Below are positions 1,155-34,131 of a stretch of DNA of 34,131 nucleotides, piece by piece; within the stretch, counting starts at the first letter, position 1, and every line of letters begins with the position of its first letter. A program made the position numbers and the translations under genes. This DNA is from a virus, in IMG/VR virus record IMGVR_UViG_3300045988_046485, positions 1 through 34,131 of that record; one strand, given 5' to 3'. The notes below the pieces were generated by a model. It did no database searches. It saw only the letters and a program-made list of their open reading frames with translations, and was not told where the DNA came from.

Positions 1155-1196
1155 CAAATATACGGCTTTTATCAATAGGTTGTACATTCCGTTAAC
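1155..1196 (-). promoter_or_regulatory. Early promoter copy P2 (GTTAAC-N28-TATATTTG)
   Basis: Minus strand reads GTTAACGGAATGTACAACCTATTGATAAAAGCCGTATATTTG, followed by GTAATGTCAAAAGGAAA, which is shared with copy P4. The predicted start is about 1147-1149, 2-4 nt before the first RNA helix. Confidence 0.65.
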
Positions 1197-1218: not shown

Positions 1219-1574
1219 CTGTCTCACTTAAAACGTTGAAAACCAGCCGTTTAAAAAATGAGATTTCATACTGTGCCACCCCTCGAAAATGCGCTGTCTC
1301 ACTTAACGAGCTACAAACCAAGCCGTTACAACGGAAAAAGCCAACTGTGCCAGGTGAGGCTGATGTTTTCCTATAACTTTATTTGGAATATATAAAATAC
1401 TACTATACTACGAATATTTAGTAGAGGGGGTAAATTTCAATAATCACCAAAATAAAGTGTTATACCATTTTCACTGTCTCACCTGGCACACCTCTATAAA
1501 TAACTATAATACAGCAAGTTAAGTGAGACAAAGACTGTGCCACCTAAAAACCGTGCCTGGCACAGTGGCACAGT
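1219..1574. repeat. Non-coding hub R1: iteron cluster, AT-rich core, iteron cluster
   Basis: 9-mers of the family CTGT[GC][CT]CA[CG] or its complement start at 1219, 1271, 1294, 1345, 1474, 1483, 1523, 1535, 1558 and 1566. A 129-nt AT-rich gap holds the conserved block CCAAAATAAAGTGTTATACCATTTT (1447-1471). No ORF of credible length is present. Confidence 0.85.
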
Positions 1575-1583
1575 TTGAGACGC

Positions 1584-1612
1584 AAAAAGGGCACATTCCG
1601 AAGAATGCACCC
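1584..1612 (-). terminator. Rho-independent terminator ending the late (lysis) operon
   Basis: Minus strand reads GGGUGCAUUC-UUCG-GAAUGUGCCC followed by UUUUU, 13 nt after the stop at 1625. Two G-U pairs make the stem perfect only on the minus strand. Confidence 0.85.
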
Positions 1613-1624
1613 TTAAATCGTGTT

Positions 1625-17723: not shown

Positions 17724-17740
17724 AATTGTTAATTGGTTTT

Positions 17741-17780
17741 GTGCGTGCGTGGGTCAATAATCAATGTCCGTGCGCGCGCG
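17741..17780. promoter_or_regulatory. Two 11-nt alternating purine-pyrimidine tracts flanking TCAATAATCAAT in the terS leader
   Basis: Sequence is GTGCGTGCGTG (17741-17751), TCAATAATCAAT (17754-17765), GTGCGCGCGCG (17770-17780), lying 18-57 nt upstream of the terS ATG. Confidence 0.5.
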
Positions 17781-17808
17781 GTCTATTACTCCCTTAAGAG
17801 TGTGGGGG

Positions 17809-17884: not shown

Positions 17885-18282
17885 GTGGCACAGATAACGC
17901 ACTGTCCAACAACGAGTTACAAGCGTTTTTGCCTACTGTGCCAGGCACGTTTCTGGTGGCACACCTCGGGTGGCACAGATAACGCGCTACGTATCAGACC
18001 GTTAGGGCGACTGTGCCACTGTGCCAGGCAAAAAGCACTTTTCTAACACTTGGTTTATAAATAGTATATATTACTGCTATCTCTACATTGCAATTACCAT
18101 ATATTTTTCCAAATAAAGTGTTATACCTATTTTATACTATTTAGTGGCACAGTGTAGATAACTATATATAGGTCAGTGAGTTATCTGTGCCACTTGCTGT
18201 GCCACCCTACATTTTTCCTGGCACAGTAACTGTTAACGATATTGTGTATCAGCACTTTAAGTGAGACAGATGGGTGAGACAT
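17885..18282. repeat. Non-coding hub R2: iteron cluster, AT-rich core, iteron cluster (paralog of R1)
   Basis: 9-mers start at 17885, 17936, 17956, 17970, 18011, 18019, 18144, 18185, 18197, 18218, 18261 and 18274. The extended 16-mer GTGGCACAGATAACGC occurs twice (17885, 17970), and its inverted 14-mer is at 18180-18193. A 125-nt AT-rich gap holds CCAAATAAAGTGTTATACCTATTTT (18109-18133). Confidence 0.85.
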
Positions 18283-18493
18283 GCCTATTTATTTTACCAG
18301 CCATACTTGATTATCAGCACGTTAGCACGGGGCATCTTTTGATAAGGAATTTTCAATTAACAATCTAAACACTTTTTAAGAATTGAGCTTTCATAAAAGA
18401 TAATTACAAAGGGCGATTTCTGACTATTTGTAAGCCGAAACCGTCCTTTTGCTATCATTTTTTAAAGGTATATGCTATTCGTAAGGGGCACTA

Positions 18494-18910
18494 TCATTTA
18501 GTAACTTTATTGCTTTCCCACCTATCAAATAGCCAACCGTCCGAGTTCCAATGCCAAACCATTTTCGTGCCATCAGGGAAAAGGGTTGCCCGGCTTATCC
18601 TTCCCTCCTTGTCTATGGTGTATCGCCTGGGTACGTCTTGTTCGTTCCGCTTCTCCTCGTCACGTCTCGCCTCGTCCCGGAACAAGTATTGCCGCTTATT
18701 AACTTCCTGCTTATACGTGAAGTCCTGCTCCCCTATATAGGCCGCCAGCTTATCTATCCACTTCCGGCATTCACGGGCCGATACGCTACCACGCCCCCAT
18801 CTATCCTTTTTAACTCCCTTCCCGAAGCCGTACCGCCTTATGAACTCCCAAATGATGAACGTGTGTACATTGAGGCACACCGCCAAGTCCATAAAACTAA
18901 CTTTCTTCAT
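18494..18910 (-). CDS. hypothetical protein (138 aa), possible DNA-binding N-terminus
   Basis: The N-terminus FMDLAVCLNVHTFIIWEFIRRYG looks like a short helix-turn-helix, followed by a charged linker and a W-rich C-terminus. Last gene before hub R2. Confidence 0.65.
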   Translation of the reverse strand: MKKVSFMDLAVCLNVHTFIIWEFIRRYGFGKGVKKDRWGRGSVSARECRKWIDKLAAYIGEQDFTYKQEVNKRQYLFRDEARRDEEKRNEQDVPRRYTIDKEGRISRATLFPDGTKMVWHWNSDGWLFDRWESNKVTK

Positions 18911-23779: not shown

Positions 23780-24868
23780 CTATTTTTTTTTGTTTAATAA
23801 TTGTTTTACTATTTCCTCTGCTATCCTCTTAACTACCGGGACGGCTACACTGTTACCGAATTGCTTGTATGCCTGCACTTTAGATACCACCACATTGAAA
23901 GGGCGCTCCCCGGTGTTCTTATCGGATGCCCAACCGTCCGAGATTATATTATACCCCTGCAGTCTGCCAGCTTCTTCTACCGATAATTTACGGGGGTTCA
24001 ACCCTTTTTCTGTTTGGTCTATCAGACAGCTCTGCCCGTCCTTATAGTATACTGCTGTTAGTGCGCCGACAAATTCTACCTCCCCGGTGTACTTCTTGTA
24101 TCCAAATCCCTTGCCGTTCTTCACGTTATTCTCTTTTCTTCGTTTATGTCCTTCCCAGGCTTTGTCACTTATCGGTAACGTGTCGGGTGTGTCCTTCAAT
24201 ATATCGGATAATCTCGTAGAGATTGCCCCGGTCTTTGCCTTCTCCTTGTCGTATATAGTATTTCCGTTTATGTCTATTCCGTATGGGAACCAGAAGCCGT
24301 CAGAGCTTATGCTATCCTTGTGCCAAGCCACTATAAACAAGCGTTCTCTATTCTGCGGAAGTCCGAAATATCGTGCGTTAACTATGTCGTAGGCATACGC
24401 GTAGCCAAGCTCTTCTATTGTATCTAAAATAACTTTTAACGTGTTGCCGCCATCGTGCGTCTTTAGCCCTTTAACGTTTTCGAGAAATAATACTTTAGGG
24501 GGTGTCCCGGCTTCTACCTTGGCTTTTATCAAGTTCGCTATGTTAAAAAACAATGTTCCTCGTGTGTCCTCGAACCCCTTTTTAAGTCCTGCGTTCGAGA
24601 ACGGCTGACACGGAAACCCACCGCAGCACACGTCGAACGTCGGGACATCTTCGGCATTAACCTTTGTTATATCGTCGTTGAAAAATAGGTATTCTCCGTT
24701 ACTGTCTTTTAAAAATAGAGAAGGCTCGTCGTCTTTATAATTGGCTTCATACGTTAATCTCGCATACTTGTCTAATTCGCTCGCAAAAACGCATCTGCCT
24801 CCAGCACTTTTCATCGCGGTGTGGAAACCGCCTATCCCTGCAAATAAATCTATAAACTTAAATTCCAT
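23780..24868 (-). CDS. DNA (cytosine-5)-methyltransferase (362 aa), with no cognate endonuclease seen
   Basis: Motif I is FIDLFAGIGGF, IV is GGFPCQPFS, VI is LENVKGL, VIII is QNRERLFIV and X is GNSVAVPV. Confidence 0.93.
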   Translation of the reverse strand: MEFKFIDLFAGIGGFHTAMKSAGGRCVFASELDKYARLTYEANYKDDEPSLFLKDSNGEYLFFNDDITKVNAEDVPTFDVCCGGFPCQPFSNAGLKKGFEDTRGTLFFNIANLIKAKVEAGTPPKVLFLENVKGLKTHDGGNTLKVILDTIEELGYAYAYDIVNARYFGLPQNRERLFIVAWHKDSISSDGFWFPYGIDINGNTIYDKEKAKTGAISTRLSDILKDTPDTLPISDKAWEGHKRRKENNVKNGKGFGYKKYTGEVEFVGALTAVYYKDGQSCLIDQTEKGLNPRKLSVEEAGRLQGYNIISDGWASDKNTGERPFNVVVSKVQAYKQFGNSVAVPVVKRIAEEIVKQLLNKKK

Positions 24869-25890: not shown

Positions 25891-28341
25891 TTAACTTTCA
25901 AACATGCTATCCACGTCTACGTTAACAATTCTTTTGAATCCCCTTTGTTGTCCGTATGGCTTCACTCTCTGTCTGCTACGTTCCCATCCGGGTAACTTGT
26001 TCAGTATGTCGTTAATCTCGGAAGCATCTCTGGCCTTAATCTTTCCTACCTCGAAGCCTAAAGCCTCAACCAGCACGCCCGTAGCGCTAACGAAGTCCAT
26101 CTGTACGCAGTCCTCTTTTGTTATCTCGTCCTCGTCGTAATTCTCGTAATACATACGACGTTCCAGAGGGAACATCTTCTCCCAGTTGGTCGGTACATAC
26201 ATATCGCAATACTTTGCAACGGCTTCGGTGCGCGGGTCTGTCTCGAAGTGCTCCTCTCTGCCTTGTTCGGCTATTACTTCGGCCTCTGCTGACAGCAACG
26301 TAGACACACCGCGGAAATACATATTAACGGCCTCCGCCCATAACTGGTCTACGTATGCCGGGAAATCGGCCTCGAAGATAAGATGGGTGTTTTCGTTGGC
26401 ACGTACACGTACGGGTAAAAATCTACGCCCCCCTGTTGCGTCCTTCAAAAACTCGTCCTTGTTGGTCGTCCCAAAGAAAACGCACTGGCGCGGAAAGTTC
26501 TTGGTAACGCGCCCGTACGCTGGTCTAAAACTGTCCTCGGTCTTGGTGATGAAGTTCTTAACCATCTCCACCTCTGAACGTCTCATTGCTGATAACTCGG
26601 CTATTTCCAGTATCCAGCTACCTTGCAATTGTTCAAAAGCCGATTTACCATCCATCGTTGACAAGCTATCCGAGAACCACTGTTTACCCAGCATCTTAAG
26701 GAATGTACTTTTTCCCGCTCCTTGGTCGGACTGTAAGACCAGCATACTATCAAATTTGCAGCCCTTTTGGAAGATACGTTTAACAGCGCCCACCAGCATG
26801 ATACGGAAAGCCTCGCGAGTGTATATGTTATCCTCCGCACCGAGTATATCAATCAACGCGGTATCTACCCGTTCTGTGCCGTCCCATTCTAATTTTGTCA
26901 GATAGTTCTGCACCGGGTGGAAAGAGTTAATCTCGGCAACAAGTGAGATAGCATCATCTACCTTAAACGAACTACTGATGCCGTAAACATCTTCGATATG
27001 TTTTCTAACGCCTGCAAAATCTACGTCTTGGAAATCCGTGCTGCTATCCTTCGGTCTCCATATCGGGGTACGGGTAACCACCCTGCGTTCTTTAAATAGG
27101 TCACGGGCTATCAAGCCTTTTAAATTCGGGTCATACTTAAGTATTAAACCCAGGTTCTTTGCGCTCGGTAAGTAATTACCTTTTTTATCTACTTCGAGTT
27201 CTGCCATCACTTTTTCAAATGATACCTCGGGCACGTTATCATGTACCTCTTCGGGTTCTATCGTCTCCTCGAAGTCGTTCATAACCTCGGTAGCCTTTGC
27301 CAGCAAACGAGACGCGCGCATTTCCGCTACCTTTGCGTCCTTGTTTACAAGTTCATTCATCGCGTCTGTTGACTTCGTGCGGTCTTGTCCCTTATCCATC
27401 TTACCGAACTTGTGTACACGTACCAAGTCATAGGCATTAAACACGTGGTTTCCTTGGATAGGGTCGTTGTTATGGAACGAATAGGCGAACATATCATCAA
27501 AAGTAAGCATGCCCCCGGAGGTAGAACCACCGCTATACGTCCATCTATCGGGTTGGTCTGTTGGCTCGTAAACGTCCGGCAAGTATTCCGCGATAACTTC
27601 TGAAATGGTGTACGCCCGGCAAAAGTCGCCTACCGTACCTTCCTTTAGCGTCGGGTCTTGCTGCTCCTTAATGAAGGTACGTACTTCGCCTTTCTCATCC
27701 TTGTGGTATGCCCATTCCGTCGTGTTGTGCCAATCTTCGTACATGTTAAGGTATTCGTTGACGTCTAAAGGAAACTCGCACAACTGTGAATAGTCGGTGT
27801 AGTCATAATCTACGTCTCGGGACACCGAGGGGAAGAACATACAGCGTTCGGGCTGAAACGTCGTGCGGTCATACAAATCTATCCCGGTAATCTCGGCAAC
27901 CTTCCTGGCAATAGCTTCGTACTGCTCACCGTCCACGGGTTCGGACAATGGAATGATAACACGGTATCGAAATGTATTTGCCTTCGGGTTATGCTTATGC
28001 GTCCCGTGTATGATGCACGCACAGTTTATCACTGCGAAAAATCGCTCCGGAAAATCTGCCTCTCCGTAGTCGATATCAAGCACCAATAGCGAACGCTCGC
28101 CTACGTTGTTTTTGTTTCGCCTGCTACCGAATAACTCACCGCCCATGAATGCGCCTACGTCTTTAATCGCCCCTTGTTCGGCTTTGCTCGCTGCCATGAA
28201 CTCGCGGTATGTTTCCTCCGTTACTTTCGCACTGGTGAACCTCTTTACAAGTTCCTCCCATGTGTAGGTACGGTTTTTCCAACTTACCGATTTGGCATTC
28301 GTCGCAGTGGCAACCTTAAAAGTCATTTTCTTTAAATCCAT
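25891..28341 (-). CDS. primase-polymerase fused to a VirE/D5-type P-loop helicase (816 aa)
   Basis: The N-terminus has LLVLDIDYGE (catalytic DxD) and GTHKH. The C-terminal half has Walker A LQSDQGAGKSTFL and VirE-like ILEIAEL / GGRRFLPV blocks. Confidence 0.85.
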   Translation of the reverse strand: MDLKKMTFKVATATNAKSVSWKNRTYTWEELVKRFTSAKVTEETYREFMAASKAEQGAIKDVGAFMGGELFGSRRNKNNVGERSLLVLDIDYGEADFPERFFAVINCACIIHGTHKHNPKANTFRYRVIIPLSEPVDGEQYEAIARKVAEITGIDLYDRTTFQPERCMFFPSVSRDVDYDYTDYSQLCEFPLDVNEYLNMYEDWHNTTEWAYHKDEKGEVRTFIKEQQDPTLKEGTVGDFCRAYTISEVIAEYLPDVYEPTDQPDRWTYSGGSTSGGMLTFDDMFAYSFHNNDPIQGNHVFNAYDLVRVHKFGKMDKGQDRTKSTDAMNELVNKDAKVAEMRASRLLAKATEVMNDFEETIEPEEVHDNVPEVSFEKVMAELEVDKKGNYLPSAKNLGLILKYDPNLKGLIARDLFKERRVVTRTPIWRPKDSSTDFQDVDFAGVRKHIEDVYGISSSFKVDDAISLVAEINSFHPVQNYLTKLEWDGTERVDTALIDILGAEDNIYTREAFRIMLVGAVKRIFQKGCKFDSMLVLQSDQGAGKSTFLKMLGKQWFSDSLSTMDGKSAFEQLQGSWILEIAELSAMRRSEVEMVKNFITKTEDSFRPAYGRVTKNFPRQCVFFGTTNKDEFLKDATGGRRFLPVRVRANENTHLIFEADFPAYVDQLWAEAVNMYFRGVSTLLSAEAEVIAEQGREEHFETDPRTEAVAKYCDMYVPTNWEKMFPLERRMYYENYDEDEITKEDCVQMDFVSATGVLVEALGFEVGKIKARDASEINDILNKLPGWERSRQRVKPYGQQRGFKRIVNVDVDSMFES

Positions 28342-32259: not shown

Positions 32260-32301
32260 CAAATATAACAAATAAATCTGTAAGTTGTTCGCTCTGTTAA
32301 C
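32260..32301 (-). promoter_or_regulatory. Early promoter copy P5 (GTTAAC-N28-TATATTTG)
   Basis: Minus strand reads GTTAACAGAGCGAACAACTTACAGATTTATTTGTTATATTTG. The GTTAAC box contains the stop codon of the upstream gene. Confidence 0.6.
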
Positions 32302-32614
32302 CTTGTTTAACTTTAAAAGTTTTTGGAGCTATTGAAATAGCGTAATCTAAATCTCTTTGGTCAGCGTTACGTATTATATACTCTTTCGACTTGACGGGAT
32401 ATTTCATAATCTCATATCTATCCCATTTTAAAATGACTGCCAGCTCTGATGCCGTCACTTCCTTAAGGGCTGCCAAAAGAGCTTGCATGTTATTAGAATC
32501 CCTTTCGATTTCCTTTTTACTCCATGTTCGGAATTGCTTCTTATTCCAAAACTTTGTTAGTTTGTCAAGCTCTTCGTTACTCATTGTTCCCTGGTTGAAT
32601 TTAGATGTACTCAT
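32297..32614 (-). CDS. hypothetical early protein (105 aa), possible winged-helix DNA binder
   Basis: ATG 32614 lies downstream of P6. The segment VTASELAVILKWDRYEIMKY looks HTH-like; this is weak. Confidence 0.65.
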   Translation of the reverse strand: MSTSKFNQGTMSNEELDKLTKFWNKKQFRTWSKKEIERDSNNMQALLAALKEVTASELAVILKWDRYEIMKYPVKSKEYIIRNADQRDLDYAISIAPKTFKVKQG

Positions 32615-33885: not shown

Positions 33886-34131
33886 CTTGTCAAGGGGTAA
33901 TTTTCAATACGTTGTTTAAGTAATGCGAATTTAGAGGCGCTAACCTTTGAAAGTGATGTGCCCCCGAACTCCAAAAGTATAGATGCCATTTCGTCACGGG
34001 TAACGTGCCCAGACTTTACACTGGATATTACGAGGTGTTGCATTTCCTTTAAAGTAGGTGTTTCATCCTTTGTTTCTTCTTCTGCCTTTGCAGGTTCTTC
34101 TGCCTTTGCAGGTTCTTCTGCCTTTGCAGGT
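33882..34131 (-). CDS. C-terminal part of the wrap-around PAKAEE-repeat ORF
   Basis: Reads PAKAEEPAKAEEPAKAEEETKDETPTLKEMQHLVISSVKSGHVTRDEMASILLEFGGTSLSKVSASKFALLKQRIENYPLTR, then a stop. The stop overlaps the ATG of the exonuclease gene (ATGA). Confidence 0.7.
   Translation of the reverse strand, partial: PAKAEEPAKAEEPAKAEEETKDETPTLKEMQHLVISSVKSGHVTRDEMASILLEFGGTSLSKVSASKFALLKQRIENYPLTR
34078..34131. repeat. 18-bp tandem repeat x3 (TCTTCTGCCTTTGCAGGT); the last 53 nt duplicate nt 1-53
   Basis: Direct reading of the sequence. Confidence 0.9.

Follow-up and report, generated by a model that had tools for sequence, protein, structure and literature searches.

Two paralogous iteron hubs as probable SaPI-type replication origins in a circular Bacteroides siphophage

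The two long non-coding gaps of the phage genome analysed here are probably a pair of paralogous replication origins, each read by the C-terminal winged helix of the phage's own primase-helicase, here called PriRep. This proposal draws on sequence comparison among related phages, on a structural model of the protein and on analogy with the Rep initiators of the SaPI elements. The window, by which we mean the whole stretch of DNA that was analysed (34,131 nt), carries one of these elements, hub R1, at 1219-1573 and the other, hub R2, at 17885-18283. The best reading of both, as judged from the sequence comparisons, is that they represent SaPI-type origins of the PriRep initiator which would have become detached from the initiator gene and duplicated. 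This type of origin is known from Staphylococcus islands; two co-evolving copies of it, half a genome apart, are an undescribed arrangement, and no published description of these hubs in Bacteroidales phages was found in the literature searched.

The window is a circular Bacteroides siphophage genome. It was assembled as a circle of ~34.08 kb, in that the first 53 bases recur exactly at the end (1-53 = 34079-34131), and its A+T content is 54.1%. The nearest database relatives, at ~75% DNA identity, are siphophages of Bacteroides uniformis (BU730P1, BU2-1, BU241P1/P2, BU183P1, EMB1/2 and C2_18_80S2P), and the hosts of farther relatives are Phocaeicola, Parabacteroides and B. thetaiotaomicron; the family consists of siphophages of Bacteroides, Phocaeicola and Parabacteroides with genomes of roughly 34-38 kb. 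All credible genes of the window lie on the minus strand. Followed in the direction of transcription, the map begins with R1, the early promoter and a set of small early genes, continues through a DUF2800 nuclease, an Enc34-type single-strand binding protein, a phosphoesterase and a family A DNA polymerase, and then through the 816-aa VapE-type primase-helicase, an SNF2 helicase and a VRR-NUC nuclease with further small genes to R2. From R2 it runs through the small and large terminase genes and the tail, head and lysis genes to a terminator and back to R1, such that R1 heads the early/replication operon and R2 the terminase/late operon. The GC skew of the window falls monotonically and is uninformative on origins, because every gene sits on one strand. 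Searches of the whole window returned 0 Rfam matches at gathering thresholds and 0 tRNA genes by ARAGORN, and the GenBank records of the relatives leave both hubs as empty, unannotated space. The 53-base end overlap sits in an 18-nt tandem repeat that codes the PAKAEE repeats of the wrap-around ORF (starting at 325, minus strand); because the overlap falls in this repeat, the number of repeat units and the frame of that ORF across the junction are uncertain.

R1 comprises ten short iterons in both orientations, eight of them exact and two near matches to the 9-mer CTGTSYCAS, arranged around two AT-rich stretches, which agrees with the count of about ten given in a preliminary description of this DNA. 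The promoter-proximal arm (1219-1353) holds four iterons of the same orientation, in which GAGACAG and GGCACAG types alternate: CTGTCTCAC at 1219 and 1294, CTGTGCCAC at 1271 and CTGTGCCAG at 1345. This arm is built from two 75-nt direct repeats (1211-1256 and 1286-1331), and an extended form of the iteron, CTGTCTCACTTAA, was found as described at 1219 and 1294, with the inverted form TTAAGTGAGACA at 1519. There follows an AT-rich core (1354-1473; 72.5% A+T), which is presumed to be the unwinding region; other places in the genome exceed the cores of R1 and R2 in A+T content. An AT-rich separator between the two clusters had been noted correctly, and the length of 129 nt assigned to it is the start-to-start spacing of the flanking repeats, the repeat-free core itself being 120 nt long. 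The core also holds the imperfect palindrome that had been recognised previously, whose arms (1373-1386 with 1447-1463) are exactly complementary over 9 nt (1376-1384 with 1450-1458), as well as a block, GGTATAACACTTTATTTTGG in the minus-strand reading, that is kept in R2 and in relatives. At the core edge (1474-1491), a further CTGTCTCAC at 1474 abuts the inverted near copy CTGGCACAC at 1483, and in relatives the same slot is occupied by a tandem pair. Beyond a second, short AT-rich stretch (1492-1522; 77% A+T), whose equivalent in relatives is TATTATAATATATTATATGTA, the terminator-proximal arm (1523-1573) carries the near copy GTGAGACAA at 1523, CTGTGCCAC at 1535 and the complements CTGGCACAG and GTGGCACAG. 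Both complements are present as listed, and their starts, formerly placed at 1558 and 1566, are to be moved to 1557 and 1565. Three of the four iterons in this arm are inverted relative to the promoter-proximal arm, and over the hub as a whole the four sites on the promoter side are alike whereas four of the six beyond the core are inverted. R1 is overlapped by three short ORFs on the plus strand (46, 45 and 73 aa). They are antisense to every gene, and a close relative (L035) has a 1-nt deletion inside two of the three, on which grounds the earlier view that the region contains no credible ORF stands.

The placement of R1 between the late terminator and an early promoter, P2, is also correct, since a terminator and a -7 box flank the hub. 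On the side from which transcription arrives, R1 is immediately preceded by the intrinsic terminator of the late/lysis operon (~1584-1614, minus strand), which consists of a 12-bp hairpin with a U-tract (dG -19.9, z -4.8). The hairpin (~1589-1612) was missing from the output of a sigma-70 promoter scan, which is not meaningful for Bacteroides, and was confirmed by folding. On the opposite side of the hub, the -7 box of P2, TATATTTG (1155-1162, minus strand), lies 57 nt past the last iteron and points away from the hub; relatives have kept this box. The Bacteroides -7 consensus is TAnnTTTG, which this box fits. P2 is one of two near-identical early promoter-like sequences on the minus strand (640-700 and 1150-1200) of the form A(A/C)C(G/C)TATTGATAAAAGC(C)GT(T)ATATTTG, each with a TAnnTTTG box, one of which precedes a set of leader repeats and the other a 91-aa gene (357-632). 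The leader repeats, directly downstream of P2 (943-1145, minus strand), are two tandem copies of a ~100-nt element that are 86% identical over 50 nt. The element occurs as a single copy in relatives, including Phocaeicola phages and more loosely BT16, and folds as a hairpin, the loop of which (ACCGAAAC) is invariant and the stem of which shows compensatory changes, followed by the conserved motif GAAAAGTGAA(A/G)GGGATT. It has no match in Rfam and may serve the early operon as a structured 5' leader or as a small RNA.

R1 is not unique in the genome. Its paralogue R2, which separates the final early gene from that of the small terminase, has the same repeats, with 12 iterons of which 10 are exact and 2 near, and the same core (18028-18143; 75.9% A+T). 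The two hubs can be aligned to each other and to the corresponding regions in relatives. A block common to both had been pointed out before, and indeed AAATAAAGTGTTATACC is exact in both hubs, inside a ~25-nt stretch with one indel and one mismatch; in the gene sense, the conserved block of R1 is carried by R2 as GGTATAACACTTTATTT(T)GG. A genome-wide count of the 9-mer family, one of the checks that had been proposed, gave 19 occurrences of CTGTSYCAS on both strands, compared with 0.82 +/- 0.95 (maximum 4) in 100 dinucleotide shuffles, and 18 of these 19 fall in the hubs (8 in R1, 10 in R2 and 1 elsewhere in the window). The hub centres are separated by 16.7 and 17.4 kb on the circle, and a conserved segment next to the core is specific to each position, TAGCATTTACCACTAT in R1 and GTGTATTTTGAGGGG in R2. 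Identity is 83-85% between different phages at the same position and 72% between the two copies inside one phage, which indicates that the duplication is old and that both copies have been maintained. Only the repeats evolve in concert between R1 and R2. The iteron consensus of the hubs is STG-RS-ACAG, and the two sub-types present in the window, GTG-GC-ACAG and GTG-AG-ACAG, differ at two positions that also vary inside other phages (GACCAG/GCCCAG; GCACAG/ACACAG); these two positions are probably tolerated rather than read. Between R2 and the start codon of the small terminase gene, the leader of that gene (17735-17800, minus strand) contains a GC-rich stretch in which purines alternate with pyrimidines (CCGCGCGCGCACGGAC ... 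CCCACGCACGCAC). All B. uniformis-group relatives have a stretch like it (CTCGCGCATCTCTTTAAGAGACCGCG.GCACACACG), and it could be a leader of the late operon with some structure, or a site of regulation.

Both the motif and its layout are conserved well beyond the window. The examination of related phages that had been recommended earlier found the element at both positions in every complete genome examined (13 of 13) and, among metagenomic (IMG/VR) relatives, in at least a dozen. In the complete GenBank genomes of the B. uniformis group the element occurs twice and no more, always at these two positions (10/10). Three distant phages, with primase-helicases that are 42-59% identical, have a shared repeat set in both gaps, namely GGAACAC in BV674P5, GGATAGG in BT16 and an inverted GTGTTCA-type in PM116P1. 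Phages of the B. uniformis group conserve the AT-rich core as well as the places at which repeats occur, and the repeat sequence is phage-specific and of identical type in both copies: CACAGAT; CACAGTA; GACCAG (with GCCCAG or GGCCAG); TGTCACA; or, in the window's own clade, GGCACAG together with GAGACAG. In that clade, when the four closest genomes (primase-helicase 93-97% identical) were compared, the share of variable columns was 3.6% in the iterons and 4.2% in the core versus 15.4% in the spacers (Fisher p ~1e-5). Two IMG/VR relatives (L018 and L019) have mixed repeat types in each of their hubs (GACACAG/CTGTGTC, CTGGTCAC and ACACAGTA) and a wing in the primase-helicase that is one residue longer (AANARPVV), and may be intermediates in a change of specificity.

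The protein that is predicted to read these repeats, PriRep (25891-28341, minus strand; 816 aa), combines a primase with an SF3 self-loading helicase-initiator resembling SaPI Rep. It contains a Pfam VapE-like domain (E 2e-80), and its profile, searched against the PDB with hmmsearch, matched 7PDS, the SaPI1 Rep-DNA complex, over residues 387-738 (E 2e-104). A homologue search with the C-terminal domain alone returned 2 hits and was too shallow for structure, and the full-length alignment of 108 homologues was used instead; the resulting AlphaFold2 model has a mean pLDDT of 89.8 and superimposes on Rep1 (Foldseek) with a TM score of 0.84-0.87 over the whole chain at 32-33% identity. By sequence and by model, then, PriRep is a true member of the Rep family with a fused primase. 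Its C-terminus, encoded at 25930-26109 on the minus strand (residues 745-804), is modelled as two helices (753-760 and 770-782) and a beta-hairpin wing (786-804), a block in which pLDDT is 89-94 up to residue 800 and which has the predicted fold of a winged helix. The last ~100 residues of PriRep are 32-40% identical to those of the B. uniformis-group relatives, versus 60-92% for the rest of the protein. One PriRep cluster has 464 member sequences.

The association of the repeats with PriRep is supported by co-variation. A total of 25 B. uniformis-group genomes were typed by iteron, and every alignment column of ~34 protein families, among them the lysis genes, all early genes and the small terminase, was screened for columns diagnostic of type. 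Between the CACAGTA and CACAGAT types the sole diagnostic column is primase-helicase 793, where 12 of 13 CACAGTA phages and none of the CACAGAT type have Asn; these two classes were told apart by bases next to the conserved CACAG core that may contribute little to binding. For the GACCAG type the diagnostic columns are primase-helicase 794 (Arg) and 478, plus single columns in two other proteins, one in an HNH protein carried by only two GACCAG-type phages and one in a 61-aa ORF. Residues 793 and 794, neighbours in the first wing strand, form the only site that tracks both contrasts in iteron type. In the wing stretch, a phage of the GACCAG type (L032) and one of the CACAG type (L013) differ by one nucleotide, CAA to CGA, giving Gln794Arg. 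Since the hubs lie 8-10 kb from the wing codons in genomes that are otherwise mosaic, the association suggests selection for compatibility rather than linkage. The co-variation comes from few independent lineages, the GACCAG type being represented by two near-identical genomes (L007 and L021) plus L032. It also has an exception in L031, an IMG/VR locus that covers only R1, where CACAGTA-type tandem repeats occur together with the wing found in the CACAGAT phages L004 and L011; this wing, SAKARPI, is otherwise paired with GCACAGAT repeats. L031 may have arisen by recent recombination; alternatively, the two bases that follow CACAG may go unread. The screen of metagenomic loci superseded a first one, in which substitutions private to BU183P1 were compared with nine phages and the comparison group was mosaic.

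Other candidate readers fared less well. The binders named in the preliminary description (the products of 18494-18910, 32297-32614 and the wrap-around ORF) have no column diagnostic of iteron type, and neither these three nor five other small early proteins matched a Pfam or PHROGs family. The 32297-32614 product initially appeared promising, being 75% identical to that of EMB2 and ~52% to the others, and was rejected as C2_18_80S2P has EMB2-like repeats yet a BU183P1-like protein. The small terminase was likewise rejected, as it is 98-99% identical between BU183P1 (GACCAG) and CACAG-type phages and has no diagnostic column.

The hubs have their closest counterpart in the SaPIs, whose Reps are self-loading helicases that double as initiators and recognise iterons of 5-6 nt through a C-terminal winged helix (PMC9371898). 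SaPI origins lie just after the rep gene and have 6-12 iterons with an AT-rich region in the middle, at least two iterons per side and the sides in opposite directions, and the matching of protein to iteron is specific to each element (PMC9371898). The present system is like that of SaPI1, SaPI5 and SaPIbov1 in its homologous SF3 self-loading initiator with a C-terminal winged helix, in which the primase fusion recalls SaPI5, in having at least six short iterons flanking an AT-rich centre (10 sites in R1 and 12 in R2) and in the opposite orientation of iterons on the two sides of the core (in R1, four alike and four of six inverted). It differs in belonging to a tailed phage of Bacteroides rather than a Gram-positive satellite, in iterons of 7-9 nt rather than 5-6 nt, in the presence of two arrays per genome, each beside an operon start, and in the distance of 8-10 kb between array and rep gene, whereas the SaPI array follows rep directly. 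The analogy is incomplete in this phage lineage because the array is not beside the rep gene: a repeat hub directly after the initiator gene is absent from the window and from all of the Bacteroidales-type loci (0/56). Among distant homologues of 38-43% identity, the top-ranked repeat hub begins at the stop codon of the gene and is followed by an AT-rich stretch in 21 of 77 IMG/VR loci (L039, L070, L072, L074, L075, L092 and others), for example as GGTAACA x14 in L092 and GGTATCCAT x10 in L039. These arrays, which follow VapE/VirE-type genes of the same protein family in other phages and elements, resemble the hubs in their 8-14 short repeats in both orientations and their AT-rich stretch. They occur as a single copy abutting the stop codon, an arrangement from which the Bacteroidales phages depart.

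Partial parallels may also be drawn with two phages that have separated repeat clusters. In phage P4, the alpha protein reportedly combines primase, helicase and origin binding and ends in a winged helix, and its ori and crr, 4.5 kb apart and unlike in structure, are said both to be required for a single origin. P4 thus shares with the window two separated clusters of the same iterons on one small genome and one multifunctional protein, a role that is predicted here; however, the present clusters are full paralogues ~17 kb apart, in contrast to the P4 pair. The Bacillus phage SPP1 is said to have two origins, oriL (inside the initiator gene) and oriR, with repeated boxes beside AT-rich DNA bound by G38P, which reportedly needs the separate loader/helicase proteins G39P and G40P. 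SPP1 is likewise a siphophage with two distant origins of repeat boxes and AT-rich DNA served by one phage initiator, as predicted for the window, but G38P is unrelated to PriRep and depends on a loader and a helicase, and oriL lies within its gene.

The suggestion that iterons around an AT-rich core represent a replication-origin layout is therefore backed by the homology of PriRep to SaPI Rep, by the co-variation of the wing and by the post-gene arrays of distant homologues. A mechanism can be proposed from the SaPI system together with the co-variation. By analogy with SaPI Rep, PriRep would bind the iterons of R1 and R2 through its C-terminal winged helix, without an accessory loader, and hexamers would assemble on both sides of the AT-rich core. 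PriRep may then melt the core and load itself as the replicative helicase, upon which its N-terminal primase would prime and the family A DNA polymerase of the phage would extend. That binding, melting and the start of forks take place at both hubs is inferred from these two lines of evidence. The hubs face each other nearly across the circle, one in front of the early operon and one in front of the late operon, and we tentatively entertain a further possibility, that they act as a coupled pair, in which R1 may serve early theta replication and R2 late replication tied to transcription or packaging, or in which PriRep may mediate pairing of the hubs.

An origin of bipartite form, with one hub as the true start and the other as a cis-acting partner (an enhancer like P4 crr, or a handcuffing or copy-control site), is a less probable variant of this reading. 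Separated clusters of the same iterons reportedly constitute the ori/crr layout of P4, and the copy-specific segments beside the core, TAGCATTTACCACTAT in R1 and GTGTATTTTGAGGGG in R2, hint at non-identical roles. However, both hubs keep the full architecture, with both arms, both AT-rich stretches and the conserved block, and R1 and R2 are similarly constrained, such that neither copy is marked as degenerate. It is also improbable that the hubs are regulatory arrays, that is, operators or enhancers without any part in origin function, bound by PriRep or another phage protein, through which early transcription (R1) and late transcription (R2) are switched or timed. Each hub does lie directly upstream of an operon start, R1 ending 57 nt from the P2 -7 box and R2 preceding a TAnnTTTG box and the small terminase gene, a placement that would suit a role in transcription just as well, and initiators of iteron plasmids commonly autoregulate. 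Against this, no small early protein co-varies with iteron type, the sole co-varying reader being the helicase-initiator; an operator does not need a conserved 120-nt AT-rich core between opposed sites; and like arrays in distant homologues follow the rep gene and not promoters, leaving the regulatory reading with no support of its own. PriRep at the hubs could nonetheless influence the adjacent promoters as a second role.

Use of the repeats as pac sites for the small terminase is very unlikely. R2 is immediately upstream of the small terminase gene, and some GenBank records of relatives begin inside the R1 equivalent; however, the record start points of the relatives' assemblies are scattered, a second pac site half a genome away, past the lysis genes, lacks a rationale, and a small terminase that is nearly unchanged across differing iterons, with no column tracking their type, is difficult to reconcile with recognition of these repeats. 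Hardly any weight can be given to the remaining explanation, that the repeat is neutral or selfish, for instance a small mobile element that inserted twice, and functionless for the phage. The two copies do occupy the only two long non-coding gaps, but the positions, the architecture and the copy-specific features are kept from B. uniformis phages to those of Parabacteroides and B. thetaiotaomicron, the iterons and core are selectively conserved, the genome holds no copy of the element elsewhere, and no DNA match to R1 was found in the plasmid collection.

If the two hubs are indeed origins read by PriRep, several consequences follow. Phages of this type are common in sewage and gut metagenomes, and the location of their putative origins opens the question of how they replicate to concrete and cheap experiments. 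The relatives provide a natural specificity table of wing residues in the winged helix versus iteron bases, in which Gln794Arg goes with the change from CACAG to NCCAG, and which opens the recognition code of SaPI-type self-loading helicases to direct testing. Pairs of phage origin and initiator with orthogonal specificities may supply parts for Bacteroides genetics, and origin decoys could possibly confer phage resistance. The separation of the origin from the initiator gene and its duplication also raise the question of why a co-directionally transcribed circle would keep two. Were the hubs to act as a coupled pair, this would represent a replication architecture undescribed for tailed phages and conserved in a large family of Bacteroidales phages of the human gut.

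A final observation concerns DNA modification genes in the early region. A 362-aa ORF (23780-24868, minus strand), read by sequence motifs alone, resembles a cytosine-5 DNA methyltransferase; it is absent from the closest relatives, or matched over about half its length at 25-29% identity. Several relatives have adenine methylases or other DNA methyltransferases annotated elsewhere in the early region, and methylase content therefore varies among these phages.
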